Program-made: the position numbers and the translations under genes | Assembly: GCA_020724555.1 (NCBI GenBank) | Contig: DYGT01000004.1 | Span: forward strand, 9,564-73,563 | Length of the DNA: 64,000 bases | Source of the DNA: Candidatus Microgenomatus sp. | GTDB taxonomy: Bacteria; Patescibacteriota; Microgenomatia; UBA8517 | Direction of reading: 5' to 3' | The notes under the pieces: model-generated | Database searches by the model: none | Seen by the model: only the letters and a program-made list of their open reading frames with translations | Told to the model about the DNA's origin: nothing | Shown here: in pieces, positions 8,035-47,087 of the stretch | How the letters are laid out: the number at the start of each line of letters is the position of its first letter | How positions within the stretch are numbered: the stretch's first letter is position 1

Positions 8035-8051
8035 AATTCATTTTAAACACT

Positions 8052-8915: not shown

Positions 8916-8918
8916 AAT

Positions 8919-10562
8919 TTAATTGGCGACTATCTGAAATGCTATTTCGCCACTAGGAAAATAAATCTCATAAACGACATTTGTTTCATCCGGAATTTCT
9001 TCATCTGTACCAATTATAAGGCTGTCCGGATTTTGGCGCGCAAGCTTGTAAAAATCTATTGCAACAAATCTGTATTTTGAATATGCGTCAACAGTGGAAA
9101 AACCGAATTCGTCTGCCTTTGTAAGCGTGTGATCTGCTTGAAAAAGTTCGGGCGGATACTTAGTGTAATACAACATAAGTATGTACGGCTGGTCGTAACG
9201 CGTGGTGATGAAAACTTTTTCAAACTTGTGCTCTTCTTGGACAACATAATCTGCCATTTGAGAAAATCCGTATTGCGAAGAATAAGGATATTCCTTGGGC
9301 AGATGTTTGTAATACATTATTAAATACCTGACGACGGAAAGGCAAAGAGAGAATATGATAAGCGAAAATAGTGTATACTTCATATAATTTTTTTGCTTTT
9401 TGGCAAAAATTAATATCTGCGATAATCCAAAACCACTAAAAATTGCCATGGGTATGACCATGTTTTGCGCCCGCAGAGCATGTGGAGACTGAAACGTAAA
9501 AGCCGCAGCCGCAGGAGATATCAATAGCCACCAAAAAACAAATCCCCATCCTTTAAATTTCTTGGCTATTTGCGACCCGGCAACGAGGATAAACACAATC
9601 TCCACTAGATATAAAAGCCCTGTTTCAGGGACTTTATTGCGCTGTATCTCATCTCCTGAAATAAACAAAAATTCACCTTTGTAGTGCTTTCCCCAATTTG
9701 AAAGAAATTTCATCGTATACTCAAGGGGTTTATTGTGAAAGGCTTTGGCGCTTATACCTCCAATATCCTGATGTTGGCCTCTAAGCTCATTAATGCGGTT
9801 AATAATTCCAGGGTCTGCCGTAATTCCCACTCCACCAGCGCGAGACAAACCCCCACCTATGAGTAACGAATAAATAAGCGGCAACGCCAAAACAATGCCA
9901 ATTGCAAGCGAGGCTATAAACGTTTTGGCGTTTCTTTTTATATAGGACCGGTTAAAAAACAAAAGGCCCAAACCTAAAAGAGGCGCAACAACCAAAGAGG
10001 CATGATAAATATATAAAGAAATTACAAAAGCTATAATCGAAAAAAAATAATATTTAGGTTTTTTTGTGGCATTTAAAAACAATAAAACGCCCAGCAACAT
10101 AAAAAACGTCGCAACATTCACTTCCCAGGCGCCGCGGGAAAAATGGATATGCCACGGGGAAATTGCAAGCATTAATGCCGCCGAAAGTGAAAAATACTCC
10201 TTTTTTTCTTCTTGCAGATTGCCAAACCAATTTTTTACCAACAATGCAATTAAAAATATGCTTAAACTTCCCAAAAAAATGGAAACAAATCTGATGCTTA
10301 ATGCATTTAAGCCAAATAAATAGACAAAGGGTAAAATCAGATAAACGTATCCGCCGGGCTTATAATCATTAAAAGACTGAAAATGTATCGGCCAGGCATT
10401 TCCATGCTCGTCTTTTCCGGTTTGGATTAAAGAATAGGCGTTGTATCCCAAAGCCGCCTCGTCCGCATTTATTGGAGGTAAAGTCGCGGACTTACATAGT
10501 CTTAAAATAAGACCAAGCAAGAAAATTAATAATAATAATAAATAATACTTATTCTGTTTCAT
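8919..10562 (-). CDS. GT39/PMT/ArnT-like GT-C membrane glycosyltransferase, family A paralog A1
   Basis: NADEAALGYNAYSLIQTGKDEHG first-loop DE motif, then FNDYKPGGYVYL. Central AFHNK...FLFISGD. Late LISPAAAAF..SPHALRA. 547 aa, polytopic. Confidence 0.75.
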   Translation of the reverse strand: MKQNKYYLLLLLIFLLGLILRLCKSATLPPINADEAALGYNAYSLIQTGKDEHGNAWPIHFQSFNDYKPGGYVYLILPFVYLFGLNALSIRFVSIFLGSLSIFLIALLVKNWFGNLQEEKKEYFSLSAALMLAISPWHIHFSRGAWEVNVATFFMLLGVLLFLNATKKPKYYFFSIIAFVISLYIYHASLVVAPLLGLGLLFFNRSYIKRNAKTFIASLAIGIVLALPLIYSLLIGGGLSRAGGVGITADPGIINRINELRGQHQDIGGISAKAFHNKPLEYTMKFLSNWGKHYKGEFLFISGDEIQRNKVPETGLLYLVEIVFILVAGSQIAKKFKGWGFVFWWLLISPAAAAFTFQSPHALRAQNMVIPMAIFSGFGLSQILIFAKKQKNYMKYTLFSLIIFSLCLSVVRYLIMYYKHLPKEYPYSSQYGFSQMADYVVQEEHKFEKVFITTRYDQPYILMLYYTKYPPELFQADHTLTKADEFGFSTVDAYSKYRFVAIDFYKLARQNPDSLIIGTDEEIPDETNVVYEIYFPSGEIAFQIVAN

Positions 10563-12210
10563 TGACTTTTAATACATAAAATGCGGCTGTACCGTCCGGA
10601 TAATCGATTTCTTTGCTTAAACTAAGCTTGGGTATTTGTGAAATTTTATCTAAAGGCAGGGTAACTGCACTAACAATTAAATATGAATTGTCCGTAGCAT
10701 ATATTTCCCCCCAATTAAGATCCTGAAAGTAAACATTGCCTACTTTTTCAACTAAACCTACGTCCGCATTTCCACTTTCTTTAAATGAATTAGCGTTTTG
10801 GTACTCCAGAGGGTCGTATTGGCTATAAAATAAATAATAAATATAGGGCTGGTTATACGACTGCTCAACAAAAACGGTGCTATCATCCGCAATTTTATCT
10901 ATTTCTAAAGCCATTTGTTTATATCCATAGCCCCACTGTCGGGCTTGAAGCTCTGGCAAGTGGACAAATTCCGCTTCGACAAACAACAAAAAAGAAACTA
11001 TGTATGAAAAAATCAATATAACCAGAGCTTTTTTACTAAATTTTTCATAAAGTGAGGCTACACCTAAGGCAGCCAAAATAATTAAGGGTACGGATAAATA
11101 TAAGGCTCTCACGGCATGGACTTGGTCGCGCGACAGGGCAGCCGGTAATGGTGCCAGTAATAACCAAAGCAAAACAAGCGCTCGGTTTTTATCAAACCTT
11201 CGGAATAAATAAAATAATCCCACGGGTATAGTTACGATGCTTGCCAGAAGCATCATGCCATGGTATGGAGGGCTATGTCTGGGGTTTTGCCAATCACCTG
11301 TAAAAAACAAAAAATCGGTTGAATAGTGATTAAAGTAGCGCCCCAATATTCCGCGCAAAAAATTATATGGTTCGGAATAAAACAGATAATAAGCCGTACT
11401 GCCCACTTTTACATTTGCCTGAGATATAAAAGCATCGCGGTACTGGCTTGGCCGGGGATAAGAAAAAACGCTGAAAACAGATAGCCGGCCGGTCTGGCCT
11501 TTAAAAAATGACATAGCCACCGGCAGCAAAAATATTAATCCAGTAATTATTGATATTAATAAGTACTTAAATCTTATTTTAATAAATTGCTGATAAAAAA
11601 GTGCCAAAAGAAAAATTAGTAAAAACAAACTCATGAATTTGGCGCCTTGATAAGTCCACAACGTCAATCCAAAAGCAATAGCCGAAAAGATTAAATATTT
11701 GTTCTTATTTAGGGCTATGAGGAAAAAATATACAGCCATTATTGTCAACAGCAAAGCAATATTTACTTCCCAAGCGCCGCGGGAAAAATGAACCGACCAG
11801 GGATTTATCGCAAGCAGAAGTGAAGAAATATACGCCGTTTTTTGCCCAAAAAGTTTTTTCATTAACAAATACATAAAGAGCACGGACAGCGTCCCACCTA
11901 AAACACTCGGTAAACGAACAGCAACTTCGGTTAAGCCAAGAAAAGCAACAAACGGAATTGTCAGATATACATATAGACCGGGCTTATAATCTCCAAATGA
12001 TTTGAAGATAACCGGTAAAAGTGCTCCGTGCTCATCGCGCCCGGTTTTTAATATGGAATACGCATTATATCCCAAAGCCGCCTCGTCCGCAGTTAAACTT
12101 GGAGGGTTACTACCAATATCATAAAACCTGATTATAAATGCCGCAGTTAAAATTGCGGCCATGGTTGCTATATTTTTATTCTTCATATATTTCATAGGCA
12201 ACATCCCCAT
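10549..12210 (-). CDS. GT39/PMT/ArnT-like GT-C membrane glycosyltransferase, family A paralog A2. The true start is probably an internal Met, which removes the 35-nt overlap with A3.
   Basis: TADEAALGYNAYSILKTGRDEHG; FGDYKPGLYVYL; FLFFTGDWQNPRHSP; LLAPLPAALSRDQVHAVRA. Confidence 0.75.
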   Translation of the reverse strand: MGMLPMKYMKNKNIATMAAILTAAFIIRFYDIGSNPPSLTADEAALGYNAYSILKTGRDEHGALLPVIFKSFGDYKPGLYVYLTIPFVAFLGLTEVAVRLPSVLGGTLSVLFMYLLMKKLFGQKTAYISSLLLAINPWSVHFSRGAWEVNIALLLTIMAVYFFLIALNKNKYLIFSAIAFGLTLWTYQGAKFMSLFLLIFLLALFYQQFIKIRFKYLLISIITGLIFLLPVAMSFFKGQTGRLSVFSVFSYPRPSQYRDAFISQANVKVGSTAYYLFYSEPYNFLRGILGRYFNHYSTDFLFFTGDWQNPRHSPPYHGMMLLASIVTIPVGLFYLFRRFDKNRALVLLWLLLAPLPAALSRDQVHAVRALYLSVPLIILAALGVASLYEKFSKKALVILIFSYIVSFLLFVEAEFVHLPELQARQWGYGYKQMALEIDKIADDSTVFVEQSYNQPYIYYLFYSQYDPLEYQNANSFKESGNADVGLVEKVGNVYFQDLNWGEIYATDNSYLIVSAVTLPLDKISQIPKLSLSKEIDYPDGTAAFYVLKVNETE

Positions 12211-13846
12211 TCAGAAAATAGATTTCGTCTATTTTATCCCAATCCGAAGGGGCATTACCCGCACTGGTTATCAACAAACAACGCGCCTCCCCGCAATCAA
12301 CCAAATCTCCGCTTTCCAGGTAAAAACTATACTGAGGGCCTTTTACAATTTCCCAATCGTTTAAAAAATAAAATTTGTCAAAGCTATCAACCCAGTACCA
12401 ATTTGATTGGTAAAAGCGCTTTAAATTTTCATCATTTCTATAATCTGCGGGGTCCCATGGCCAATAAAATAAAATAAACTCGTGTGGCTCGCCGTATTTT
12501 TTTGTAACCAAAAACTTATCATAGTTTTCATATCTATTTTTTATATAGTCAACAAGTTGTTTTGTTCCGTATTGCCAGCTCCACGAATAATTATTCCTGT
12601 ATTCGCCCGTATAATAATTGATATAGGCTGCATAACTTAATAATAAAATCGCTAAATATAAAGCCAAAAAAACATATTTATAAAAAATTACTTTTATCTT
12701 ATCCAAGATATGCTTTAACCCAGATGCGATAAAAACAACAGCAGCTGGCGCCATGATTAGACTCCTTAATGCATGGGGCGACTCGCGGGTTACACTTGCC
12801 GCCAGTGGTGCGAGCAATAACCACGACAAAAAAAGTATTTGCCATTTTTTGCGCTCACGCAAGGAAGCTAAAACGCCCCAATAAAAGGTAAGGACATGCA
12901 CAAAAGATAAAAGCCCAACTCCCGGCAGGCTAAATTGGTAATGACCGGAACCCCTAAAAAACAAAAATCTTGGGTCAAAATGAGAAATATAATTATTAAT
13001 AAATCTGGGGACAAAATAAGTTACGCGATTATATATGAAGCGAGTTATAAGCGGAGAATAGTTTGTATTTTGGCGCAATAAACCAATTTCATAAAGTGCA
13101 TTATCGTTAATAATAGCAACCAACCCATATCTGGCTTGGCCCTGAGGCATTATTAACTGATAAATCATTGGAAGAAAAAACAAAGAAAGCACTAATAAAG
13201 ACAGCAATAAATTAATTTTAGTAAAATTCTTAAACAATTCTTTTTTGTAAAGAATTAGCAAACCGGTAACAAAAAGAGGCGTAAAAACCCGTGCAGTATT
13301 ATAAGTCCAAACCGAAAGACCGAAAAACAGAAAACTAAACATTAAATTGGCGGTTTTGCCCTCTTTTGCTCTAAAGAAAAAAAAGACTGCTGCTAAAACA
13401 AAAAAATTGGCCAGATTTGCCTCCAGAGCGGCTCTTGAAACCAGCACAGTCCAAGACTCAAGTGCCATAAACAGAGCAGCAAAAACAGAAATTTTTTCGT
13501 CTTTTGTAACTTTTTTTATTAAAAAATAAATAAGAATCACCGAAGCCGTCCCCGCCAAAACAGACGGAAGCCGCACGGACCACGCATTCAAACCCAAAAG
13601 CCAGACAAAAGGCACGGTCGTATAGATGTATGCCGGAAGCTTATAATCCCCATATGCTCTAAAAATCAGAGGAAAACTTTTTCCCCACTCGTCTTTACCT
13701 GTTTTTAAAATTGAGTATGCATTATAACCATGGCTTACCTCGTCCCAATTTAGTGCTGGCGGATTGGTTGATAAACCGATTAATCTTACGAGAGCAGCTA
13801 TTATAAAAATGGCAACAAAAAAATATTTATAGATATATGTCTGCAT
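12176..13846 (-). CDS. GT39/PMT/ArnT-like GT-C membrane glycosyltransferase, family A paralog A3
   Basis: NWDEVSHGYNAYSILKTGKDEWG; YGDYKLPAYIY; FLFFRGSGHY; LLAPLAASVTRESPHALRS. Confidence 0.75.
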   Translation of the reverse strand: MQTYIYKYFFVAIFIIAALVRLIGLSTNPPALNWDEVSHGYNAYSILKTGKDEWGKSFPLIFRAYGDYKLPAYIYTTVPFVWLLGLNAWSVRLPSVLAGTASVILIYFLIKKVTKDEKISVFAALFMALESWTVLVSRAALEANLANFFVLAAVFFFFRAKEGKTANLMFSFLFFGLSVWTYNTARVFTPLFVTGLLILYKKELFKNFTKINLLLSLLVLSLFFLPMIYQLIMPQGQARYGLVAIINDNALYEIGLLRQNTNYSPLITRFIYNRVTYFVPRFINNYISHFDPRFLFFRGSGHYQFSLPGVGLLSFVHVLTFYWGVLASLRERKKWQILFLSWLLLAPLAASVTRESPHALRSLIMAPAAVVFIASGLKHILDKIKVIFYKYVFLALYLAILLLSYAAYINYYTGEYRNNYSWSWQYGTKQLVDYIKNRYENYDKFLVTKKYGEPHEFILFYWPWDPADYRNDENLKRFYQSNWYWVDSFDKFYFLNDWEIVKGPQYSFYLESGDLVDCGEARCLLITSAGNAPSDWDKIDEIYFLNGDVAYEIYEE

Positions 13847-15505
13847 TTAAGGTAAAGCTTGATAAGCAAAAGGCAAAGTATCGGGGTTTACTATCCAAAA
13901 AGCATCGGATAAATCGGGGTATTTTACGACATGGATAACGGGAGCATCCGGCGGAAATTCCTCCGGCCGGCCCACCAACAAAACAGAAGATAAAGCTTTA
14001 TATTTTGGATAATCCATGCTTGTAAAAACGTATTTACCCAGCCTGTACTCAGGCATTTGGTCTACCCATTTAACCCCCAGTTCACGATAATTCCAGTCTT
14101 TTACCGCATTTTGATAAACTGACGGATCTAAACGAGAATAAAAAGCATAATAAATATGCGCTTCTGATAATGATTTGGAAATAATAATTTGCTCGTATGG
14201 TTTGTCTATTTCATTTAAGTAAGTAAAAATATCTTCTGCTCCATAAAGCATAGCGCGGGCAGTTGTGTATTTTTGCTGAATAAAATATTTTTCAGCAAAA
14301 AACACTAAAGACAGTAAATATAAAGCCAAAACACATTTTGTAAATACGGCTTTCTTACGGCGAGACATGATCTCATAAATATTATTCCAACCCACTGCAA
14401 GTAAAATCGACAGCGCCGGAAGCATAATAATCGCGCGGTTGGCGGCATATCCCGGCCCACGCGACAAGGCCGCCGGAATCGGGGCGGTTAATAGCCAAAA
14501 CACAAGCCAGGGAGCTTTTTTAAGCTCTTTTATATTAATAAAAATACCAACAATAAACAGAAGTTCCAGTAAATACAAAACACCCACTCCTGGCATCATC
14601 CCGTATGTTCCCTCACCGGCTCCGCTGGAAAACAAAAATTGCGGTGAAAAATATTGAAAGTATTGATCCAAAAAAGTTTTTCCCAAAACCAAAAATCTGT
14701 TATTAAATAAACGCGCCCAAGTAAGGGGCAAACCGGCCAGCATTGCGTTAAACCTTGCATCTGCCGGAGGTTTGGTATCTAGGATTGTACTCGTCGCCAG
14801 ACGGTCTCCTGCCCCTTTAAACATACTTACCAAAGCGAGTATAAAAAAGGCAGCAAAAACCAAAAGAAAGATTAAAAAATTTCTATTCTTTAAATGATTT
14901 TGCCAATTTTTAGGATTAAATTTATATATGATTAAAAATCCCAAAACAAGAGGAGTTATAAGTCTTGCGGAATGGTAAGTAAAAAGATTCAAGCCCAAAA
15001 AGAACCCGGATAAAGCCGCCTGTTTTTTGGATTTCGTTATGCCCCAAAAAAAATAAATACCGGCTGTTAAAAAAAAGGTCGTGAGATTAGCCTCAAACGC
15101 CCCTCTGCTCATGGCAATGTGCCAAGGGGATATAGCCAAGATAAATGCCGCCATTAATGCTATTTTTTCGCTACCAAAACTGCGTTTTGTCAACAAATAA
15201 GTAAAATAGGTAGCGCCAACGCCCAAAAGTGCCACCGGCAAGCGGACGGCAAATTCGCTCAAACCAAAGATCAATACGCTGGGAATAGCCAGATATGCCA
15301 AAAGTGGCATTTTTCCGTCGCCAAAAGATTGAAGCACTATCGGGAATTTATTCCCCCATTGATCTTTGCCGGTTTTTAGTATGCTATAAGCATCATAACC
15401 AAACGATGCTTCATCGGGAGTAAAACCAAAAGGATAGTCAGATAAACCAATTAATCTAATAAAAGCAGAAATGGTTAAAATTAAAACCAATAATTTATTT
15501 CCCAT
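13847..15505 (-). CDS. GT39/PMT/ArnT-like GT-C membrane glycosyltransferase, family A paralog A4
   Basis: TPDEASFGYDAYSILKTGKDQWG; FSPQFLFSSGAGEG; LTAPIPAALSRGPGYAANRA. Its stop directly abuts the A3 start. Confidence 0.75.
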   Translation of the reverse strand: MGNKLLVLILTISAFIRLIGLSDYPFGFTPDEASFGYDAYSILKTGKDQWGNKFPIVLQSFGDGKMPLLAYLAIPSVLIFGLSEFAVRLPVALLGVGATYFTYLLTKRSFGSEKIALMAAFILAISPWHIAMSRGAFEANLTTFFLTAGIYFFWGITKSKKQAALSGFFLGLNLFTYHSARLITPLVLGFLIIYKFNPKNWQNHLKNRNFLIFLLVFAAFFILALVSMFKGAGDRLATSTILDTKPPADARFNAMLAGLPLTWARLFNNRFLVLGKTFLDQYFQYFSPQFLFSSGAGEGTYGMMPGVGVLYLLELLFIVGIFINIKELKKAPWLVFWLLTAPIPAALSRGPGYAANRAIIMLPALSILLAVGWNNIYEIMSRRKKAVFTKCVLALYLLSLVFFAEKYFIQQKYTTARAMLYGAEDIFTYLNEIDKPYEQIIISKSLSEAHIYYAFYSRLDPSVYQNAVKDWNYRELGVKWVDQMPEYRLGKYVFTSMDYPKYKALSSVLLVGRPEEFPPDAPVIHVVKYPDLSDAFWIVNPDTLPFAYQALP

Positions 15506-15526
15506 TATTTTATTATAACGATATAT

Positions 15527-17206
15527 TTAGTAAACCTCGACAATCAGCCAAGCAACTTCACCATTGGGGAACAAAACCTGCTCCACTACCCGAGCCTCAT
15601 TTGGGTCGATATCCTTGGGCCTTACCCGCTCCGGAGGCCCGACAAAAAGGTGCCCGGATTTATATCGATCCTCGGGCCAATATATAGGCCTGAATTCATA
15701 ATTATCATAGCCGGCGCCTTCACCTAAGGACTGTGGATCGGCCTGAATCAGTCGCGCTTGTGGTTGATACAGTTCCGGTGGATATTTTTGAAAGAACAAA
15801 AAGAATATGTAAGGACCTTGGTAAGTTGTATCTACCACAACTTTTTGATAATGAGCTGCAAGCGGGGTAACTTTATTAACTACCTCCTGATAACCCCACT
15901 GCCACCCTGCCGGGCCCTTATAATTTTTTTTAGGAGTATAAATGTAATAGCTTATAAAATAAAAGGCTAGTAAATATGTTGAAACTAAAGCGGCTAACAC
16001 CAATAATAATTTTTTTAATTTTACTGGTTGCTTTTTAATAATCGCCGCCGATTCCCAAAAGCCAAGCGAAGACAACATCAATAACGGATAAACCATATTA
16101 AACGCACGGCGGGCGTGTACCGGATCGCGTGTAATAGCAGCAGGCAGTGGAGCCAATAATAGCCACCCAACAGTAAACATGCGGTTCTTTTTTTTAAGCT
16201 TGCCAAGAGAAGTTAAACCCAAAAATATAAATGGCAAATCAAACAAATAAAGCATACCCATATCAAAAATGTATTGCCTGGGGTCTTCCGAAGGACCGAA
16301 AAAAAATAAAAATCTGGGTGAAAAATGAGTCAAATACCGATCGATAAACCCAAAAGTGCCTTCGGCCAGAGAACTATGAAACAAGTCATAAGTTAATACT
16401 GAAGTGCTTAATTTTTGAACTTGCGTAACATACTCGCCTGGGCGTTGATAGCCAAAGACAGTTGTTTTAAGAATTTTTTCCTGATGCCCTTGGGATACAA
16501 GAGACGAAAAAATGGGTAAGGCAAAAATAAGTATAACAAAGATGATTTTTAATAAAATCTTTTTTCTCTCAAAAAGTTGTTTACGGTTAACAAACAACAA
16601 CCATAAAAAAATGAGCGGAACAAACAATCTTTCTCCAAAATAACTATAGATAGAAAGTGAAAAAAATACAGCTGATAAATAATAAAGTTTGGGCTTTTTA
16701 TTACCATACAAGAAAAAGGCAATACCTGCTGTCGTAAATATGGTGGCAAAACCCACATCCGCCCCTCCTCTGCTGAATTGCAGATGCCAAGGAGAGAAAC
16801 AAAGCATTAAGGCCGAGACAAAAGCAACTTTTCTTTGCGTCAAAACTTTAACTATAAAATAAAAGGCCACAACGGAAAAAGAAGACGTAAGACTCGGAAG
16901 TAAACGGACAGACCATAAATTTAATCCAAAAATTTTAATAAAGGGTACCAAAGCATATATAAACAAAGGCGCTTTATAGTCTCCGACTGATTTAAATTGC
17001 AAGGGCATAAAATTGCCATATTCATCTTTGCCTGTTTTTAGGATTGAATAGGCATTATAAGCAAAACTAGTTTCGTCCCAATTTAAACTAACCGGTACTT
17101 TATTTATAAACACAATCCTTAGTAAAAAAGCTAGAATAAAGATACCGAAAGGCAGTAAAAGATCGCCACTTACCTTATTATTTTTAAATTTTTCCAGGAC
17201 TTTCAT
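15527..17206 (-). CDS. GT39/PMT/ArnT-like GT-C membrane glycosyltransferase, family A paralog A5
   Basis: NWDETSFAYNAYSILKTGKDEYG; FSPRFLFFFGPSEDPRQY; LLAPLPAAITRDPVHARRA. Confidence 0.75.
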   Translation of the reverse strand: MKVLEKFKNNKVSGDLLLPFGIFILAFLLRIVFINKVPVSLNWDETSFAYNAYSILKTGKDEYGNFMPLQFKSVGDYKAPLFIYALVPFIKIFGLNLWSVRLLPSLTSSFSVVAFYFIVKVLTQRKVAFVSALMLCFSPWHLQFSRGGADVGFATIFTTAGIAFFLYGNKKPKLYYLSAVFFSLSIYSYFGERLFVPLIFLWLLFVNRKQLFERKKILLKIIFVILIFALPIFSSLVSQGHQEKILKTTVFGYQRPGEYVTQVQKLSTSVLTYDLFHSSLAEGTFGFIDRYLTHFSPRFLFFFGPSEDPRQYIFDMGMLYLFDLPFIFLGLTSLGKLKKKNRMFTVGWLLLAPLPAAITRDPVHARRAFNMVYPLLMLSSLGFWESAAIIKKQPVKLKKLLLVLAALVSTYLLAFYFISYYIYTPKKNYKGPAGWQWGYQEVVNKVTPLAAHYQKVVVDTTYQGPYIFFLFFQKYPPELYQPQARLIQADPQSLGEGAGYDNYEFRPIYWPEDRYKSGHLFVGPPERVRPKDIDPNEARVVEQVLFPNGEVAWLIVEVY

Positions 17207-17796
17207 ACCTTAGCCGGCAGCAAATAAAGATAATCGTGCAAAAACCGTAAGTATTCATAAATAAAAATCATAAGTAAAAACAAAACAACTTTAGGTTTTA
17301 TTTTGATAAGCCTTGCCAAACCTACCCCGGCTAAGGTGCACAATATAAATAATGCGGGCAGTCTAACAAAAGTATTATATTCATGGGCGATAAAACCGGC
17401 CGGGAGTAATGAAACTATAAGACATATAAAAGTCAGTAAACGCAATTTATTGTTTAAATAGTAAATACCCGCCAACATCAAAGGTAAATAAGATAAATAC
17501 AAACAGCCCGCAATTATCGCTCCGGAAAAAAATAAGTAATGAGGCTCAAAAGTGTTGCCAATGCGAATAAGTATCATTCTTCCTCTATAAGTCACTTTGT
17601 TGGCAAAAAGCCTGGCCACAAAATTGGGCATTCCTGCCTCAAACAATAAGCCACGATTGTTGTTTATAGTTTCCCGGGCTACACGGTCTGAAACAGTAAT
17701 TGTTTCACCTGGCGAAAAGTCTTTCTGGCCTAAAGTAAAAAGAGCAGCAGGAGATAATATAAATAAAAATATTGCTGCTGTAATAATATTTTTCAT
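17203..17796 (-). CDS. Half-size family A derivative (197 aa). It matches only the central loop and following TM region of the GT39-like paralogs and lacks the catalytic DE N-terminus. It is either a truncated paralog/pseudogene remnant or an accessory subunit.
   Basis: ARLFANKVTYRGRMILIRIGNTFEPHYLFFSG aligns with A6 RLFHNKFTYWGDMIVNNYLDSFSLDFLFYEGD. SLLPAGFIAHEYNTFVRLPALFIL aligns with the APIPAAxTRD region. It has a signal-peptide-like N-terminus and ATGA overlaps at both ends. Confidence 0.55.
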   Translation of the reverse strand: MKNIITAAIFLFILSPAALFTLGQKDFSPGETITVSDRVARETINNNRGLLFEAGMPNFVARLFANKVTYRGRMILIRIGNTFEPHYLFFSGAIIAGCLYLSYLPLMLAGIYYLNNKLRLLTFICLIVSLLPAGFIAHEYNTFVRLPALFILCTLAGVGLARLIKIKPKVVLFLLMIFIYEYLRFLHDYLYLLPAKV

Positions 17797-19037
17797 TTAC
17801 TATTAAAAAAGTATTTCCCATAAAGAAAGGCAAAAATTATCAGTTGGGTTGCGGCAACAATATTCATAAATGCCGGATTTGTATATAAAGCTTCCCAGAA
17901 ATCAACATTAGGTACCCAAAACAGATGGTATAAATTCATAAGATGCGCCAAAGATAAGATTGAAATGGGTATAACTAGTTTTGGCTTATATGTCATCAAT
18001 ACCGTGGCTACCGGAAAAAATGGATACAGGTAGCGCTCGTGAATACGGCTCATAAACAAAAATGTGATTAAGGCGGATAGTGCCAGCGCATAAAAAACCT
18101 TCTCATTTTTAGGTTTTTTAAGCCTTAAAAAAAGTAGCGCGATTAAACCCAAAGATAGTAAATATCCCCAAAGGCGAGCTGTTAAGCCAAAAAATTTAAT
18201 AGAATCATATGTCCTACCCGGGTCAACAAGCCACCAAAAATTAAATGCGTTTGCCGTTAAAAAGCCAATCTCTCCCGGTAAAATCCGCTCACGGTAAAGG
18301 TTAATAAGCCAGATAAATAAATCAAACTTTGGATAAAACCACAAAGATACGCCTACCGCTATTAGAGCTGCAGCGAAAATCGCTTTCAACCATACAGTTG
18401 GTTTGTAATTTTGTTTGACTGCAACAAAAAGCAAAACAGGTACAAAGATGGCAAGCGAACCTTTAAAAAGAATAGACAAAGTAAAATACACGGAAGTAAA
18501 AACTAACTTTTTATTCAGAAGTGCAAATATTCCTAATAGTCCTAATAAGTTTACAATTGCGTCCGTTTGCCCCCAGACTGCTGAATTGTACCATGTAACC
18601 GGATTTATCAGCCAGATAACAAGTGCCAAAAGTGCGTATTTTGGCTTATGTTTTTTTACAAAATTATAAAGCAGCAAACCGATGCCCAAGTCGGCTAAAA
18701 TTGAAGGTATTTTTACTAAAAAAGTCATCCCGCGCTCTTCCCAAAACCAAATAAAGGGAGAGGGAAAAATAGGTATTTGTGCGTTCAGAGAACGGATAAA
18801 ATCATAAACATACTCCCAAACTGCCCGCAAAAAAACAAATAATAAAATATATAAAGGTGGCTGGTTGGGAGCTGAAAAAGACCAGATGTCATATTCATAA
18901 AAACCATTTAAACCGCGCACAAAACCCATAGTTCCCCAGGAAATGTTATTATTAAGATCTCCGTGGTAACCCCAAAACATCACCATTAGCCGCAAAACAA
19001 ATCCCAAAATCAAAATAATTAAAACTTTTTTATTCAT
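17793..19037 (-). CDS. Polytopic membrane protein, family E (GT-C-like candidate)
   Basis: 414 aa, about 11 TM segments. N-terminal loop GYHGDLNNNISWGTMGFVRGLNGFYEYDIW. It is a paralog of 44094..45362 (LHPDLWGHSFTAYFFSSEGVFNIYEY). Confidence 0.45.
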   Translation of the reverse strand: MNKKVLIILILGFVLRLMVMFWGYHGDLNNNISWGTMGFVRGLNGFYEYDIWSFSAPNQPPLYILLFVFLRAVWEYVYDFIRSLNAQIPIFPSPFIWFWEERGMTFLVKIPSILADLGIGLLLYNFVKKHKPKYALLALVIWLINPVTWYNSAVWGQTDAIVNLLGLLGIFALLNKKLVFTSVYFTLSILFKGSLAIFVPVLLFVAVKQNYKPTVWLKAIFAAALIAVGVSLWFYPKFDLFIWLINLYRERILPGEIGFLTANAFNFWWLVDPGRTYDSIKFFGLTARLWGYLLSLGLIALLFLRLKKPKNEKVFYALALSALITFLFMSRIHERYLYPFFPVATVLMTYKPKLVIPISILSLAHLMNLYHLFWVPNVDFWEALYTNPAFMNIVAATQLIIFAFLYGKYFFNSK

Positions 19038-20766
19038 TGGCGGCGCCAGTTAACAAATAAAATACCGGTTCCCCCGAAGGATATGCTACCGAGTGCATAA
19101 GCGAAAGACCCGGTGGAGTTCTTTGGGGTTCAAGAATTAGATTCATAGGTATTTCTTTGGCTGAGGCGACATACAAAGTTTTATTATCTAATATTTCCGC
19201 CCACCGAAATACGTTTTCTTTGGGCGAGGCAAAATAAAATTTATCAATGTGGCTCGCATCCCCAAAGCCTTCCAGAGGTACAACATTATCCAGTGGAAAA
19301 TTCTCCTGCCAAAGTTTAGGCGGATATTCATACCAAGCTGCAAAAAATATCCAAGGCGGTTCGTTAGCTACTGAAAAAACTACCCTATCGTATTCACTCT
19401 CATGCTCTTTTACATAAGCGACGGCTTCCTCAAAACCACTGTGCCACCAACGCTCGGAGTTCCATGGGTAATGAACCCAATAATTGTGTTGATAAAATAT
19501 AAAATTAAGCAAAAACAAGCCGAGGTAAGCAGATACAAAAAAAACTTTTTGGCCACGCTTTAATCTTGTTAATGTGTTAAAAAGTCCCCAAGCCATCAAA
19601 ATTATTAAAGGCGGCAGCATTAAAATAAGTCTGGTTGCGTGAGTGCCACCGTCTCTGGTAATTGCTGAGGGAATAGGGGCTGTCAGTATCCAAAAAAGTA
19701 TTAACCATTTTTTACGAACATCGGCCTTACTCCCACCCGAAAAGTAAAAGACTATACCTAAAAATAAAGCCACTGCCTCAACTACATAAAACTGGCCTAT
19801 TCCTCCGATTGAGTGACGGGGGTTGATGTCTCCCTCGTAAAATAAAAAATCCAGAGAAAATGAATCCAAATAATTATTTACAATCATATCTCCCCAGTAA
19901 GTAAATTTATTATGAAATAACCTATCAGTATAACTTGCTGCAAATTCCCCACCTTGCTTTTCGCGAAAGACAACATCGTGTAGCCTCTTATCCCCTACCG
20001 CATACTCTGTATTGGGGTCGGAAAATACGCCAATGTAAGAAAAACGCTGGGCTGCTCCACCGGCAAAAACGCTATAAGCGGTAGGGAGGCCGACTATCAC
20101 AAAAGCAAGAAAAGCGCCAAAAAGATGTTTTGGCTTAAGCTTTTTGAGATCACGCCAGTATAAAATTACCAATATTCCCACAATAACGGGCGTGTACAAT
20201 TTGGCTGAGCTATATATCCAGGGCATAAGCCCCAAGCACAAAGCCGAAAGCCAAAGCCATTTGCCGTCTTTTAATCCTTTGAAAAAAAGATACAAACCCA
20301 TAAAAAAGAAAAACAAAAGTTCGGTTACTTCAAAAGCTCCACGGCTATACTGAATATGCCAAGGCGAAAAAGCCAAAAGAGCTGAAGCCAAAAGTGCCAA
20401 TTTTTCGTTTTTGTAAAAAAAACGGACAAACAAAAACAAAGCAATTATTCCCAATATGCCAAAAATTGCGGCCGGCAAACGCACTCCCAAAGGGCTTATG
20501 CCAAAAAGCCACACCGTGGGAACAGCGGAATATAAATAAAGGGGCGTACGCCACTCAGCCAAAGAGTGCAGATGAAACGGTAAAAAATTGCCGTAATAAT
20601 CGCGTCCGGTTTTCAAAAGAGAATATGCATGGTAACCAACGTCTAATTCATCTCCAAACAATGACACAGGGACTTTGGCCAGCCCGTTAAGCCTCAAGAG
20701 CGAAGCTATAATAATAATCCCGCAAAAAAGCCATTTATTTTTCTTGCTCATATAAAAATTGTACAC
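19030..20766 (-). CDS. GT39/PMT/ArnT-like GT-C membrane glycosyltransferase, family A paralog A6
   Basis: FGDELDVGYHAYSLLKTGRDYYG; FHNKFTYWGDMIVNNYLDSFSLDFLFYEGD; LTAPIPSAITRDGGTHATR. Confidence 0.7.
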   Translation of the reverse strand: MYNFYMSKKNKWLFCGIIIIASLLRLNGLAKVPVSLFGDELDVGYHAYSLLKTGRDYYGNFLPFHLHSLAEWRTPLYLYSAVPTVWLFGISPLGVRLPAAIFGILGIIALFLFVRFFYKNEKLALLASALLAFSPWHIQYSRGAFEVTELLFFFFMGLYLFFKGLKDGKWLWLSALCLGLMPWIYSSAKLYTPVIVGILVILYWRDLKKLKPKHLFGAFLAFVIVGLPTAYSVFAGGAAQRFSYIGVFSDPNTEYAVGDKRLHDVVFREKQGGEFAASYTDRLFHNKFTYWGDMIVNNYLDSFSLDFLFYEGDINPRHSIGGIGQFYVVEAVALFLGIVFYFSGGSKADVRKKWLILFWILTAPIPSAITRDGGTHATRLILMLPPLIILMAWGLFNTLTRLKRGQKVFFVSAYLGLFLLNFIFYQHNYWVHYPWNSERWWHSGFEEAVAYVKEHESEYDRVVFSVANEPPWIFFAAWYEYPPKLWQENFPLDNVVPLEGFGDASHIDKFYFASPKENVFRWAEILDNKTLYVASAKEIPMNLILEPQRTPPGLSLMHSVAYPSGEPVFYLLTGAANE

Positions 20767-21671
20767 TAGGTTTGCTTGTTAAATTTGGCAAATACTGCTT
20801 CATCTGAAACTTTGCTTTGCTTAGCTTCAGCCTTTCTTTTTTTAAGCACCAAATTTCTTTTTTTGCCTGCCAGGTAAATTATTCGGAAATAACCCGGGTG
20901 TTTTAAAGCCCGAATAACCATAGCCCGTATGTGCTTACGAATAAGTCGCCTGCTGGTAACGTTTTTCCAAATTACCAAAAGTTCGTTTCGTTCTTTGATG
21001 CGGTTTAAATATTTTAATTGAAAACTGTATTGGTTTATCACAGATTCATGTTCATGGATGACGTGCGCCTTAGGCTCCCACAAAAGCTCATAGCCGCGTT
21101 TATGTCCGCGATAACCCAAATCCAAATCTTCCCAGTAAAACGGACTAAAAAGTTCTTCATCCAGCCCTTTTAACTCCATCCATATGCTTCGCCTAAACAC
21201 ACCACTGCCGCCACTCACCCAAAACGTAGCATGAGCTTTATCCGCGGTAACGCCGGGCGAATGTTGAATATAACCATCAGCAAAACTAACGTTTGCCCAG
21301 GATGCTCCTTTTTCATGCAGCCCCACGGCAAAAACATTTTTATTTTTAAAATGTGGGATCACGGACTCCAAAAAATCAGCGGCGGGGATAACGTCCGTAT
21401 TTAAAAGACATACCAATTCTCCTTTTGCCATCCTTACGCCGTGGTTAACGCTGTAGCTGAAACCTCTATTTTTGGATTGCTTTATTAAGCGGATCTCACC
21501 TTTATAATTTTTTTGTAAAAAATTAACCGAATCATCTGATGAAAAATCGTCCACTATGATTATTTCCAAAATACTGTTTTTAGGATTTTTAGCTGAAGAC
21601 AAGACAAAAGGCAGATTTTTTTCTAATAAGTGTCTGCCGTTCCAGTTGGGAATTATTACACTTACATTCAT
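20766..21671 (-). CDS. GT2 glycosyltransferase (rhamnosyl/hexosyl-transferase type)
   Basis: VSVIIPNWNGRHLLEKNL; IIVDDFSSDDSVNFL; NRGFSYSVNHG; LLNTDV. Confidence 0.8.
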   Translation of the reverse strand: MNVSVIIPNWNGRHLLEKNLPFVLSSAKNPKNSILEIIIVDDFSSDDSVNFLQKNYKGEIRLIKQSKNRGFSYSVNHGVRMAKGELVCLLNTDVIPAADFLESVIPHFKNKNVFAVGLHEKGASWANVSFADGYIQHSPGVTADKAHATFWVSGGSGVFRRSIWMELKGLDEELFSPFYWEDLDLGYRGHKRGYELLWEPKAHVIHEHESVINQYSFQLKYLNRIKERNELLVIWKNVTSRRLIRKHIRAMVIRALKHPGYFRIIYLAGKKRNLVLKKRKAEAKQSKVSDEAVFAKFNKQT

Positions 21672-22318
21672 TTTATTTTTCTAATTTTAACAAGGTTAAG
21701 CATACCCCAGGCAAAATTACGATCCACCTCTACTCCAAAACCGGCTGCTTTTGCATATTTAGACAACTTATTATCTTTACTAAAAGACTGGATGTGGGTA
21801 TTATCCCATATTTTTGCCCACCAAAAATTTGTCACAAACCACCAAATAATTGTAAACAAAACGCTGTCGGTAGGGACGAGCAATATAGCATAGCCATCTT
21901 TTTTTAAAACGCGCTTTATTTCTTTTAGAACGATTTTAGGGCTTCTGACGTGTTCCATTACTTCCAGTGCAAATACTGCATCAAACTCGCTCTCGGCAAA
22001 AGGAAGTTTATGGGCATCTCCCAGTTTAAATTCCATTTTTTTTGTCCGCCAATGCTTATTTGCCCAATTTACGGATGATTGCAAAACATCAACTCCTATT
22101 AACTTGTCCGCTTTTGTTTTACTCATAATTTCATGGCTAAACAAGCCGTCAGCGCTACCGATATCAAGCACCGATTTAGCTTTATCTATTTCTTTTTTTA
22201 CTTCCCTGAACCGCATATTATGCCAATAACGCTGAAGCACATTCCTTCGTATAGATTGAAAATACCAATCGGGTGGTACGTTTTTATGCAGCGATGCTGC
22301 CTCTTTGAGACTATTCAT
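21668..22318 (-). CDS. Class I SAM-dependent methyltransferase
   Basis: VLDIGSADGLFS (motif I); FDAVFALEVMEHV. Confidence 0.8.
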   Translation of the reverse strand: MNSLKEAASLHKNVPPDWYFQSIRRNVLQRYWHNMRFREVKKEIDKAKSVLDIGSADGLFSHEIMSKTKADKLIGVDVLQSSVNWANKHWRTKKMEFKLGDAHKLPFAESEFDAVFALEVMEHVRSPKIVLKEIKRVLKKDGYAILLVPTDSVLFTIIWWFVTNFWWAKIWDNTHIQSFSKDNKLSKYAKAAGFGVEVDRNFAWGMLNLVKIRKIK

Positions 22319-23834
22319 TATTTAACTTTCTTTTTTGTACTACAATATCACCAAAGGACTTTTCCTCAAGCAAAACAGACCTACTATCCTCATATGAAAT
22401 AGTATCACTAATAAATTTGCTTGGTATACCGGCAGATGGTTCTAAAATCAAAAAACTAACGTCGGATTTTACCTCACTCGGCAGGTTATTGCCTAGCCTG
22501 CCCACCTGATCGCGGCCGATCCAAACTGGTAAAAAGCCGTATTTATCCACTCCGTACCAATTGTACAAATAAGACCAAACAGAGTTGATCCACAATGGAG
22601 AAGTAACGGAATTGATGGCAAAATTGCCACCACCTTCGCTATATGTATAATCAATTGCCGCAAGCTCTTTGGCCAGCACCATATCTTTTTGAATCGAGAA
22701 TATGGTTGCACCATTTTTATTCTCGCGCAAAATCATGGATATATTTGTTATAGCAATTAATATAACAAAAATACCTACCCCAACTCTTTTGCCGGTTTCC
22801 CATTGCTTTCTGAGAAAAATTCCCATTAAAACCGTGACTGCCGGCCCAATCCCAACCATTAAAAAAGGTGTACTTGTGCCACCAACCGAAACGACACTCA
22901 GATGCGCCAATAGCCATGTTGCTAAAAACGGCTCCCAGGAAATCGTGCGTGTATTTTTACTTTTGCGCCAATAGACAAGGCTCATTATTAAAATGGTAAA
23001 TACAAAAAAGGCCCCATAACCTATGTTGCCCGGATATGTCCAATAAGCAAAAACACGACCTATTTGGTTTAAAAATAAAATCAGATAATCGCCAAAACTT
23101 TTAGCCATTTTCAATGAACCTTCCGCGTTTGCCAAACTTGTCAAACCCCAAAAACCCCTAAAGCCAAATTTAATTTCCGTTAAAATCATGGTGCTGACGG
23201 ATAACAAACCACAGACAATAAATTGAAACACTTCTTTTTTGTTGATTTTCTCTCGCGCCACCCACAGCCAGATTAATAGAGGGAGCGTATGGTAAAGTAA
23301 AAACACCTCCGCTTGTACCGAAAAACCCAAAGCAACTGCGGCCAACGCCGGGGCATATTTGTGTTTTTTATTTATCCATAACCAAAGCCCTAAATAAAAA
23401 ACAGGTACTGTAACTATGGCTATTGTGGGGTTACTTAACCAAGTTGCATATTGAGTGGCTTCAAACGACACGGCATAAAAAAATCCCGTTAAAATTGCCG
23501 CACCCCATTTTTTGGTCATAAAATAAGCAATCACCGAAACCACAAAAATTCCTAGAGAATTAAAAATGGCAAGCCAATAAGCAGCAACTACAGGATTGTC
23601 CGACACAAGATATGGAGGCACTAAAAAGTAATAATATAAAACGCCGTGGTATAGCCCCGGAGTCGAAGACGGAGGCCCAAGTACTTTTAAATCCCCGGAA
23701 ATAATTTCTTTTGTGACATATGCGTCGCGCGCTTGGTCATAACCAAAAGTAAGCGAATTTTGCGGCAAAAACATTACTCGCAAAAAAATTCCAAATAAAA
23801 ATATTAAAACAAATATAATAATTTTACTTTTCAT
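22311..23834 (-). CDS. ArnT-like GT-C membrane glycosyltransferase, family C paralog C1
   Basis: FGYDQARDAYVTKEIISGDLKVLGPPSSTPGLYHGVLYYYF. 507 aa, polytopic. Confidence 0.6.
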   Translation of the reverse strand: MKSKIIIFVLIFLFGIFLRVMFLPQNSLTFGYDQARDAYVTKEIISGDLKVLGPPSSTPGLYHGVLYYYFLVPPYLVSDNPVVAAYWLAIFNSLGIFVVSVIAYFMTKKWGAAILTGFFYAVSFEATQYATWLSNPTIAIVTVPVFYLGLWLWINKKHKYAPALAAVALGFSVQAEVFLLYHTLPLLIWLWVAREKINKKEVFQFIVCGLLSVSTMILTEIKFGFRGFWGLTSLANAEGSLKMAKSFGDYLILFLNQIGRVFAYWTYPGNIGYGAFFVFTILIMSLVYWRKSKNTRTISWEPFLATWLLAHLSVVSVGGTSTPFLMVGIGPAVTVLMGIFLRKQWETGKRVGVGIFVILIAITNISMILRENKNGATIFSIQKDMVLAKELAAIDYTYSEGGGNFAINSVTSPLWINSVWSYLYNWYGVDKYGFLPVWIGRDQVGRLGNNLPSEVKSDVSFLILEPSAGIPSKFISDTISYEDSRSVLLEEKSFGDIVVQKRKLNNE

Positions 23835-26193
23835 ACCAAACTAGTATAGCAGACCTAATTAACGCAGTTAGGACAAAAAATCCGGAAAACATGCTTATAA
23901 ATAAAGCTAGCTTGAACGATTTTGGATAATAATTTAAGGTCAGGCTGTGGCGTCCTTCAGGAATTGCTACGCCTTGAAAGGCATAGTTGGCAGCAAAAAT
24001 ATCTACATCAACGCCATCGAGTTTAGCTTGCCAACCGGGATAATTTGTATTTGATATAACTAAAATGCCGGGACTATTTGTATCTATAGATATCACACTT
24101 TTTTGCGGATTATATTCTTTGAAATCCACTTGATTAGCTGTATCTTTTTGGGGCTTGACAGAAGGGCGATTTTCAACAACCACCTCTTTGTCCATTTCAA
24201 AATCGCTGCCAAGAAGTATGTCAAAAGCATCCAGACCTTCCGCGACTTGCCAATCAAATACCATATAAGCTCTAGGAAGTGCGTCCACGGCTTCCATGAC
24301 AACCACACTTTTATCCTCAAATACCGGTTTAAAGCGCTCGGATAAAAATCTTTCCGGCAGCTCACCTTCCGGGCTCGGCTTGCCCCGGCTAGTTTTCAAA
24401 GCCAGATAATATTTGGTATTTGCCATAGCAAGTAGCGGACTCGTGTCGTTATCGATTATGCCGTATCTGCCCGCGGGATCGGCGTCTTTGGAGTTGCTGT
24501 TAAGAGCCGCTATAAAACGCGATGCTTTCTCGGGACGCATTGTTTCATAGCCACCCAAAGTTTCCAATCCATACGGCATGTGTAAATTTACAGGCATCGT
24601 ATCCCCCAAACTTATGCGAAAAGGTGGCTCTTGGCTTTTTAAAAATTCAATTACCGGCGTTGTCGGATATATAAAACTACGCGGAGCAAAAGAAGTAAAT
24701 TTCCAGCCAAAACGAAATAACTCAAGGACTGCCAGCATAAAAACAATTAATACTCCAAGATATACTTGTTTTAACTTTTTTGCTAAAAAAAGCACTAAAA
24801 ATGTCGTCGTCAAGATCGCGCCGGGAAACAGCAAATTTCTCATACCGACCATATAATTTTCGTTATTATTGTCTATTTTGTACAAATAAAAGCTAATTAA
24901 AAAATAAACCCCCAAAATAATTCCGGTAGATAAACTTACCAAAATTGTTTTAGTACTTTTTCTTTCTTTTAAATATGCATCTACTCCAAAGGCGCAGAGC
25001 AAAGCAACAGCCAGATTTAGTAAAACCAATCCGCGGTGTGCCGAAGACGAGCGCATGCCAAACAAATTATTTTTCCATGCAAATATCGAAATGGGCGTGG
25101 GGTAAACCAAAATTAAACTAACAATAAGAAGAATTATTGGATATTTCATAAATTTTTTTCGCTGCGCCGCAGCTAAAGCATAAAATGTAAACATAAATGC
25201 GATTACTCCGGAAAAACCGGTGTTGCTCGTATAATCCTGAGGTCCCCAATAATTTCCGGTTGCATGGTTGCCAAAAAAATCAGGTGCAATAAAAGTTATT
25301 GTCTTTATAAACGGCAAAAACGCCCACTCAAAAGGGTGTGGTTCGGCTGTCCATTGAGAAAGGCCCAATAATTCTATACTTGGTATAAGCTGAATTGCTG
25401 ACAAACCTAGTCCTAATAGATAATAAAACCCTAGCCTGCCGGTTTTATATATAAAATCAATGTCATTTTTGAAATACAAAAACCACAACAATAAGCTGGC
25501 AATTCCCGTATAAATAATTGTTTGCGGGTATCCGGAAAAAATTTGGAAACAGAAAATTATTGCCAAGCCAAGACCGCTAAATCTACCCATCCCTTTTAGA
25601 ATTCTATCTTCAAAATAGAGTAGCAAAGGTATGAATGCGGCTCCCAAAGCATGTCCGTTCCATCCGGACCAGATCATATTAAAACCGGAAAATGCATAAA
25701 CAATTCCCCCCAAAACGCTTGCTATTTTCGACGCTTTCCAGTGCCGAAGAAGAATATACGTAAACAAAGCTGCGAAAAAATGCTGACTGATGATTTGTAT
25801 CGTCCAGGCATCGAAAACATTAAAAATAAAATAAAATATTGCCGTAGGAGAAAACGGTGCTGATTGAAAATTTGCTAAAAGCGGAGTGCCTCCCAAAATA
25901 AACGGATTCCACAAAGGCCAAAAACCTTGTTTTAATTGCTCGACGGCAAAAGTTTGCATCGGAAAGATAAAAGACGGAATATCTGCTAAGATTGGATTTT
26001 TAACCGGTACTCCTACCTCAAAACCCCATTTATAATCCAGCCATGGATAATAAATACCGACAACAAAATCTCCGGGGAAAGGTACCAAACCGATAACAAC
26101 TCTCCAAAAAAATACCAATACGGCCACTAAAATCATAAAAACCGGCCAATATTTTTTACAAAAGGGAGTTAATCTTTTCAAAAAATCTTTCAT
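23824..26193 (-). CDS. YfhO-like large polytopic membrane protein (789 aa), a GT-C-type candidate
   Basis: N-terminal region GDFVVGIYYPWLDY...FWPLWNPFILGGTPLLANFQSAPFSP. About 15 or more hydrophobic segments plus a C-terminal extracytoplasmic domain, reminiscent of the YfhO family. I cannot confirm without an HMM search. Confidence 0.45.
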   Translation of the reverse strand: MKDFLKRLTPFCKKYWPVFMILVAVLVFFWRVVIGLVPFPGDFVVGIYYPWLDYKWGFEVGVPVKNPILADIPSFIFPMQTFAVEQLKQGFWPLWNPFILGGTPLLANFQSAPFSPTAIFYFIFNVFDAWTIQIISQHFFAALFTYILLRHWKASKIASVLGGIVYAFSGFNMIWSGWNGHALGAAFIPLLLYFEDRILKGMGRFSGLGLAIIFCFQIFSGYPQTIIYTGIASLLLWFLYFKNDIDFIYKTGRLGFYYLLGLGLSAIQLIPSIELLGLSQWTAEPHPFEWAFLPFIKTITFIAPDFFGNHATGNYWGPQDYTSNTGFSGVIAFMFTFYALAAAQRKKFMKYPIILLIVSLILVYPTPISIFAWKNNLFGMRSSSAHRGLVLLNLAVALLCAFGVDAYLKERKSTKTILVSLSTGIILGVYFLISFYLYKIDNNNENYMVGMRNLLFPGAILTTTFLVLFLAKKLKQVYLGVLIVFMLAVLELFRFGWKFTSFAPRSFIYPTTPVIEFLKSQEPPFRISLGDTMPVNLHMPYGLETLGGYETMRPEKASRFIAALNSNSKDADPAGRYGIIDNDTSPLLAMANTKYYLALKTSRGKPSPEGELPERFLSERFKPVFEDKSVVVMEAVDALPRAYMVFDWQVAEGLDAFDILLGSDFEMDKEVVVENRPSVKPQKDTANQVDFKEYNPQKSVISIDTNSPGILVISNTNYPGWQAKLDGVDVDIFAANYAFQGVAIPEGRHSLTLNYYPKSFKLALFISMFSGFFVLTALIRSAILVWYEK

Positions 26194-28837: not shown

Positions 28838-28868
28838 AATTTGATTTTATCACGCTGGCAACATTTAT

Positions 28869-46926: not shown

Positions 46927-47007
46927 TACTCTAAATTGTAGCGCAAACGAAGTTATTTAAAAATTGCATCTTTTTATTTTTTTTGTTTTTCTGGTCTAAA
47001 CGCTTTA

Positions 47008-47021
47008 ATGTATCGATACAT
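47008..47021. promoter_or_regulatory. Perfect 14-bp palindrome ATGTATCGATACAT in the only sizable intergenic gap (46927..47087) of the minus-strand gene string. Candidate operator or promoter element.
   Basis: Read directly from the sequence. It lies upstream, on the minus strand, of the start of 45346..46926. Confidence 0.3.
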
Positions 47022-47028
47022 CAATACA

Positions 47029-47050: not shown

Positions 47051-47087
47051 ATAAAATTAAGGACATGGAGCAAAAAATAGAATTTAA

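Follow-up and report, generated by a model that had tools for sequence, protein, structure and literature searches.

The question raised by this locus is what a membrane protein of half the usual size is doing in the middle of an array of full-length glycosyltransferase genes. The locus lies in a stretch of 64,000 nucleotides (nt) from Candidatus Microgenomatus sp. (contig DYGT01000004.1, positions 9,564 to 73,563 of the forward strand), which is referred to here as the window. An open reading frame (ORF) of 197 amino acids (aa), designated orf197 (17203..17796, minus strand), is positioned in this window between X (17793..19037, minus strand), which encodes a 414-aa polytopic membrane protein, and D (15527..17206, minus strand), which encodes a 559-aa full-length PMT_2-type glycosyltransferase with the C-type fold (GT-C; PF13231, E 1.5e-12). 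Based on the present results, orf197 is very probably a conserved, functional, and non-catalytic derivative of a GT-C enzyme. We lean only slightly towards our best explanation taken as a whole, which includes a partnership between orf197 and its downstream neighbor D.

The reading frame of orf197 is intact from its ATG start and encodes the central and C-terminal transmembrane (TM) module of a PMT_2-type, GT-C-derived protein. Direct reading of the sequence showed that the TGA stop codon of X overlaps the ATG start codon of orf197 as ATGA at 17793..17796 on the minus strand, and that the TGA stop codon of orf197 overlaps the ATG start codon of D in the same manner at 17203..17206 on the minus strand; the plus strand reads tcat at 17793-17796 and at 17203-17206. 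An intact start and ATGA overlaps at both ends had been noted in an earlier, sequence-only reading of this DNA and are indeed present. The 4-base overlap with X is repeated in a syntenic locus (L009), and the probability of 197 open codons arising by chance was estimated from the base composition to be approximately 1e-6 (the G+C content of the window is 38%). The same reading described orf197 as coupled to full-length paralogs, which holds for the downstream gene D, a member of the full-length PMT_2 paralogs termed family A, but not for the upstream gene X, for which no match was found to Pfam, NCBIfam, or a hidden Markov model (HMM) of family A.

The relationship of orf197 to the middle of the family-A proteins had been proposed from the sequence and was upheld by two types of comparison. 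In a MAFFT alignment, orf197 shared 19-26% identity with the central portion of each of six PMT_2 paralogs in tandem (547-578 aa), including the FANK...YLFFSG and PAGFIAHEY regions, and all six of these full-length paralogs, when scanned, matched PF13231 (PMT_2). The family-A HMM matched orf197 at E 9e-14. A profile-profile comparison with hhalign between the family of short proteins to which orf197 belongs (described below) and the family-A alignment of 87 sequences gave a probability of 99.5% and E 1e-22 over 203 columns, and placed columns 9-213 of the short family (residues 5-197 of orf197) on residues 220-433 of D, the numbering of which is used for parent residues hereafter. The absence of the catalytic N-terminus with its Asp-Glu pair, which the sequence-only reading had also pointed out, was confirmed by the same alignment: it starts at approximately residue 220 of D, and D44-E45, invariant in the 87 family-A sequences, lies outside the region covered by orf197. 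The N-terminal 215 or so residues, corresponding to the catalytic module, and the C-terminal periplasmic domain are both missing. Since the catalytic loop is absent, we infer that orf197 is unable to transfer sugars by itself.

The short family was revealed only when an exhaustive search was performed. A word-indexed search with the single orf197 sequence returned one match, a 97%-identical copy of 197 aa, and a profile returned 10; because so few homologues were seen in this manner, an exhaustive HMMER (phmmer) search of 1.84 billion representatives was needed. This search yielded 52 matches, approximately 45 clusters of which were proteins of 195-234 aa that aligned end-to-end with E values down to 4e-42, whereas full-length GT-Cs (560-605 aa) entered only at E of approximately 1e-5. 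orf197 matched the proteins numbered P0002-P0050 across residues 1-197 or nearly so, and the HMM of the short family scored 174.8 bits on orf197 and 159-257 bits on members from distant lineages. The conserved half-gene arrangement that was sought elsewhere was present, with its length conserved, in 16 or more loci from Woesebacteria, Daviesbacteria, Shapirobacteria, and other Microgenomates, with identities of 23-56%. Among 41 aligned members, P16, N66, G97, and G159 were invariant, and S15, N45, K67, L88, F89, G92, E181, F185, and H187 were nearly so. The motifs of the family are accordingly S-P-W in the first TM helix, N45, N66-K67, L88-F89-x-x-G92, a GDxDxxKST loop, G97, G159, and E181/F185/H187 in the last TM helix. 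All of these are carried by orf197, except for W17, which is Ala, and the GDxDxxKST loop, which was removed by a 7-residue deletion after G92 (near 17520/17521). This deletion is common to orf197 and its closest relative, P0002 (46% identity); the stretch is kept in the rest of the family, with a basic residue in most members.

No existing annotation captures these proteins. orf197 matched no Pfam family at E <= 0.01 and no NCBIfam model, none of the 41 members matched PMT_2 (PF13231) or PMT (PF02366) or showed a consistent Pfam match, and the family as a whole is covered by neither Pfam nor NCBIfam; where the sources name its members, they are called "hypothetical protein". An 825-aa protein (P0041) was considered as a possible fusion and was rejected as a false match to a repeat protein.

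Selection on orf197 was assessed using a strain variant, the Logan contig L001, which was 98.1% identical over 1283 nt. Between these two strains, orf197 carried nine synonymous and five non-synonymous changes, corresponding to a ratio of non-synonymous to synonymous rates (dN/dS) of approximately 0.17 in what is a small sample, and the adjacent end of X showed a dN/dS of 0.12 in the same pair. Under neutrality, approximately 77% of the changes are expected to be non-synonymous, and the binomial P value against neutrality was 0.0012. The purifying selection that was looked for was, therefore, found, and the conservation of length and motifs over much larger distances appears to point the same way.

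The predicted structure of orf197 resembles an isolated portion of its parent. An AlphaFold2 (AF2) model built on the family alignment had a predicted local distance difference test (pLDDT) score of 94 and a predicted template modeling (pTM) score of 0.86, and showed five TM helices. The N-terminal TM helix (residues 2-23; 17728..17793, minus strand; pLDDT of approximately 95) includes S15-P16 of the SPW motif, falls within a Kyte-Doolittle peak at residues 1-24, and has the helix at residues 215-236 of D as its counterpart. A helical periplasmic loop follows (residues 24-102; 17491..17727, minus strand; counterpart D 237-322), which carries N45, N66-K67, and YLFFSG, and the protein ends with four TM helices (residues 103-196; 17209..17490, minus strand) that correspond to D 323-427, the last four of the parent. 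When the AF2 models of the two proteins were compared, the loop helices of orf197 at 38-53, 58-64, 67-81, and 85-90 matched the D helices within 257-302 one to one, and its helices at 103-113, 116-135, 143-166, and 168-196 were paired with those of D at 323-336, 339-357, 369-391, and 395-427.

The N-terminus had been described as signal-peptide-like, and this description needs correction: the segment corresponds to the parent TM helix leading into the large periplasmic loop, with Pro16 placed on P231 of D in a helix that AF2 predicts with confidence. A MAFFT placement in which the N-terminal SPA/SPW helix would be equivalent to the "SPWH" helix of family A was rejected because both the HMM and hhalign put P16 on P231. 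By helix parity, the loop helix of the parent is preceded by eight TM segments and followed by four. This parity, as well as the charged turns LNNK and KIKPK, would fit an arrangement in which the N-terminus faces the inside and both the loop and the C-terminus face the outside. Helix parity, without superposition, also suggests that the module corresponds to TM9, the large loop, and TM10-13 in the numbering of STT3/PglB. The parent itself is a bona fide GT-C, as indicated by an AF2 model of D from 87 sequences (pLDDT 94.3, pTM 0.92), for which Foldseek found STT3, ArnT, PglB, AglB, ALG12, ALG9, and DPY19 in the PDB at E 5e-9 to 1e-4, with the E values for STT3, ArnT, PglB, and AglB lying between 5e-9 and 1e-5. 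Sequence-profile searches of the PDB returned nothing for either the D clade or the short family.

A merged alignment of parent and short family distinguished the residues that were kept from those that were lost or gained. The parent positions that were kept are P16, F83, L88-F89-F90, G92, G97, G110, P132, G159, and P194; P16, invariant among the short proteins, corresponds to P231, which is conserved at 95% in the parent. The polar residues H277, H294, R310, R360, D361, and the invariant R367 of the parent are not conserved in the short family, although one position is ambiguous, with the near-invariant R145 being placed no more than 1-2 columns away from R367 by different aligners. The short family has near-invariant polar residues of its own: the loop carries N45 and N66-K67, and the last TM helix carries E181 and H187 (17236-17256, minus strand). 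E181 and H187, which lie inside the membrane and are specific to the family, are conserved at 95 and 93%, respectively, among its members but not in the parent. The pattern, as judged from the alignment, is that of a scaffold retained and a functional surface rebuilt, which would no longer serve the substrate binding of the parent. Because most polar positions conserved in the parent module have been lost, the earlier suggestion that orf197 might be a substrate-binding module was weakened.

Regarding the origin of the short family, its HMM scored 79-99 bits on the paralogs of clade U, covering the full module, versus 34-66 bits on those of clade D. The clade is represented in the window by U (19030..20766, minus strand), a 578-aa PMT_2 paralog, and its central region is the most similar to the short family. 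A U-clade gene was, therefore, the likely evolutionary source, and the simplest history consistent with the sequences would be the duplication of a U-like gene followed by the loss of both ends. The ancestor would have been a GT-C of the PMT_2/ArnT/STT3 type that lost its N-terminal catalytic TM module and its C-terminal periplasmic domain, so that only the large periplasmic loop, the TM helix leading into it, and the four final TM helices were left. One member of the short family, P0039 (294 aa), is longer at its N-terminus by approximately 100 residues, which contain three TM-like segments, among them a "TPW" helix, but lack the D-E loop; this protein appears to represent an intermediate stage of the N-terminal truncation.

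The most informative aspect of orf197 is its company. Genomic context was collected from the contigs that carry short-family genes, from a scan of GTDB species genomes with the D alignment, and from four contigs that were picked via D orthologues only. In all 16 distinct loci (12 reached via the short gene or the genome scan, and four out of four chosen through D orthologues alone), the short gene was located directly upstream, on the same strand, of a PMT_2 gene for a protein of 522-571 aa. A neighbor-joining tree and BLAST, covering the window plus the first four complete loci, assigned these downstream genes to one orthologue clade, D, the members of which share 44-62% identity among themselves and no more than 36% with any other paralog. 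When a database was searched with D, orthologues (at least 440 bits) were sharply set apart from paralogs (at most 380 bits), and the orthologues amounted to approximately 62 clusters at 90% identity. Among 73 genome loci centered on non-D paralogs, none had a short-family gene before the matched gene, and three contained a weaker relative of 191-192 aa elsewhere in the locus. The junction between the short gene and D was a 4-base overlap in seven loci, including the window, a 1-base overlap in two, a longer overlap (11-34 bases by the longest ORF) in two, a gap of 3-10 nt in four, and a gap of 77 nt in one, such that the two genes overlap or are no more than 10 nt apart in 15 out of 16 loci. 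The upstream neighbor is less regular: X occupies this position in the window and in the syntenic locus of Ca. Woesebacteria Ch104b (L009/L012), a PMT_2 gene of clade U in six loci (L008, L010, L015, L017, L058, and L093), a divergently transcribed gene in L004 and L014, and unrelated genes in L013, L016, L092, and L095.

Pairwise identity among the short proteins was correlated with that among their D partners (r = 0.70), with the short protein evolving faster (mean identity of 34% versus 50% for D). Since the loci span Woesebacteria, Daviesbacteria, Shapirobacteria, and other Microgenomates, the pair is old. These findings show that orf197 is co-inherited with one specific full-length GT-C and is positioned for coupled translation with it. 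The sequence-only reading had raised the possibility of an accessory or regulatory subunit, and a role of this type would fit the constant association of the short gene with a single orthogroup.

Three loci (L046, 7224..7802; L051, 6870..7448; L055, 7219..7794; all minus strand) contain a further half-size family, which is more distantly related and has a length of 191-192 aa. Its members scored 39-45 bits on the short-family HMM and lack the last helix, and their genes overlap a downstream gene for a divergent family-A-like protein of 553-560 aa, which is not an orthologue of D (26-29% identity to other paralogs). This hints that a layout of a half-size gene followed by a full-length GT-C gene has been used more than once in bacteria of the Candidate Phyla Radiation (CPR).

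Given the facts on pairing, it is an even question whether the orf197 protein joins D in a complex as its accessory subunit, the evidence coming from conservation and gene order. In the mechanism that we propose, orf197 and D would be co-translated via their overlapping stop and start codons, and orf197 would act beside D in the membrane as a non-catalytic subunit, supplying a GT-C-like helix bundle and a loop with polar sites of its own (N45, N66-K67, E181, and H187). These sites could stabilize D, position it, or present a lipid-linked or protein substrate to it. A bolder version, to which we give only tentative consideration and which is doubtful at present, is that the short protein and D constitute an obligate heteromeric glycosyltransferase in which a catalytically dead GT-C module acts in trans; it might then select the acceptor, gate the access of the lipid-linked donor, or couple D to neighboring GT-Cs in the manner of an assembly line.

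Several results weigh against the partnership or against the structural assignment beneath it. Synteny and correlated divergence are expected of any two vertically inherited genes of the same pathway and are no proof of a complex. X and U are also often nearby and could be the partner or additional partners. Among all paralogs, D is the one to which the short family is least similar; therefore, orf197 is not a copy of the module of D itself. Moreover, the orf197 model found no significant match in the PDB by Foldseek (best E 1.7, no GT-C), and the argument for its structural equivalence to the GT-C module is consequently one of profile homology and matching secondary structure, without superposition. 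The polytopic GT-C fold comprises 11-13 TM helices, whereas orf197 has five; in view of this number, together with the lack of a Pfam match, a catalytic loop, and a structural match, orf197 is not to be filed as a glycosyltransferase.

The explanation that competes best with a subunit of D is that orf197 is the same conserved non-catalytic protein, acting independently of D, for example in binding or recycling a polyprenyl-phosphate carrier or as a partner of X or U, and that its adjacency to D reflects operon organization. We regard this as rather unlikely. It draws on the ATGA coupling of the short gene to the upstream X in both the window and L009, and on the distribution of the other neighbors, because orthologues of X (25-59% identity) occur in six out of 14 other loci, at changing positions, and those of U in many. 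However, neither X nor U is always adjacent or even always present, whereas D is adjacent in 16 out of 16 loci. The retention of loop motifs of the parent (FxPxYLFFxG, G97, P-x-P, and, in most members, the basic residue of GDxDxxKST) would also be in keeping with an independent function of this kind; nevertheless, the short family has lost most of the polar residues that the parent conserves in its loop and TM region, and the subclade to which the window belongs has even deleted the loop segment with the basic residue.

It is very improbable that orf197 is only a translational relay, namely, an ORF that is kept open so that D is translated by termination-reinitiation, with a functionless peptide as the by-product. 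The overlaps at both ends and the lack of a visible strong Shine-Dalgarno sequence before orf197 are what a relay would show, and a promoter and terminator scan of the cluster found no signal exceeding the expectation from shuffled sequences. Nevertheless, a relay does not account for the conservation of amino acids, as reflected by invariant residues, the HMM scores in distant lineages, and the dN/dS of 0.17, or for the confident and compact fold predicted by AF2, and the short gene heads its own transcription unit in L004 and L094. Constraint from the opposite strand was excluded as a source of this conservation because no opposite-strand ORF of at least 80 aa lies across orf197.

Least credible of all is a pseudogene or a recent internal-deletion remnant of a full-length family-A gene, since, despite the restriction to the central region, the additional 7-residue deletion, and a PAGFIAHEY region that is shorter than in the full-length paralogs, the frame is intact and under purifying selection, the same truncated architecture in orthologous and distant loci makes the truncation ancient, and the deletion itself must be old because it is shared with P0002. 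The alternative of a very recent deletion, which the sequence-only reading had left standing, was refuted by the syntenic Ca. Woesebacteria Ch104b locus (L009/L012, 46% identity), which has a gene of 195 aa at this position, not a full-length one. The preference of that reading for a retained functional derivative is, in turn, strongly supported by conservation at the same length in the 16 or more loci and by purifying selection.

Comparisons with known systems place the short family at some distance from each of them. It is homologous at the profile level to the pre-loop TM helix, the loop, and the last four TM helices of the CPR PMT_2 proteins, which belong with the GT39-GT83-type GT-Cs (PF13231; ArnT, PDB 5F15 and 5EZM; STT3/PglB/AglB), and has Gly, Pro, and Phe positions for helix packing in common with PMT_2/ArnT/STT3-type enzymes. 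It differs from these enzymes in having neither the N-terminal TM module with the invariant D-E nor the C-terminal periplasmic domain, in its five TM helices, in the lack of a Pfam or Foldseek match to GT-Cs, and in the replacement of most polar residues. Heteromeric assemblies of GT-C paralogs exist, such as yeast Pmt1-Pmt2 (PDB 6P25) and mycobacterial EmbA-EmbB-AcpM (PDB 7BVF), and the Emb paralog genes are adjacent. In Pmt1-Pmt2 and EmbA-EmbB, both partners are full-length and catalytically competent. The proposed cooperation of two related GT-C-derived polypeptides in the membrane would be a point of resemblance; however, the short family is a half-size module with no catalytic site, and its association with D is proposed on the basis of synteny. 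Small non-catalytic membrane partners of GT-Cs are also known, including PIG-X, which acts with PIG-M, and the accessory subunits of oligosaccharyltransferase (OST), and serve in stability or substrate handling; neither PIG-X nor the OST accessory subunits descend from the GT-C fold. A non-catalytic membrane protein that serves a single GT-C enzyme may be functionally analogous to them, with the difference that the short family is itself a truncated GT-C paralog. In the literature that was searched, we found no description of stand-alone or truncated GT-C paralogs or of arrays or expansions of GT-Cs in CPR bacteria.

Microgenomates have tiny genomes and yet devote tens of kilobases to tandem GT-C glycosyltransferases, and a half-GT-C locked to one orthogroup points to a heteromeric organization of these enzymes. 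The short family also represents a protein family that present annotation resources have missed. From the viewpoint of GT-C structural biology, a rear TM module with its large loop that is predicted to fold alone (pLDDT 94) and has long been kept without the catalytic module bears on the modularity of the fold; if the obligate heteromer were real, it would be the first GT-C fold that is modular across separate polypeptides. The practical value of these findings will be modest until an interaction or a phenotype is demonstrated.

The remaining genes around orf197 belong to a larger assembly. X is probably another type of GT-C of the same cluster, judging from its orthologues or similar genes, for which precomputed matches to PIG-U or weak matches to GT87 were available. 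A second 414-aa ORF in the window (3849..5093, minus strand) was considered as a paralog of X (17793..19037, minus strand) and rejected, as the two are unrelated (best BLASTP E 0.64) and their equal length is a coincidence. Nearly all of the window (approximately 1392..35965, minus strand, and 36016..60205) is taken up by a glycosylation super-cluster, which is co-directional from 1392 to 35965. It includes eight strong PMT_2 paralogs (8919, 10549, 12176, 13847, 15527, 19030, 28869, and 36834), as well as a YfhO-type protein (23824..26193), GT2 and GT4 enzymes, a methyltransferase, and several membrane proteins of approximately 500-560 aa without a Pfam match (e.g., 22311..23834). This super-cluster constitutes a remarkable share of a small CPR genome.

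Arrays of the Microgenomates type were also encountered under unexpected names. Contigs labeled "Clostridia bacterium" or "uncultured Gammaproteobacteria" (DATKVU010000088.1, which is L015, and many of L020-L091) carry PMT_2 arrays of this type, and L015 carries the short gene paired with D. These metagenome-assembled genomes have probably been given the wrong taxonomic labels.

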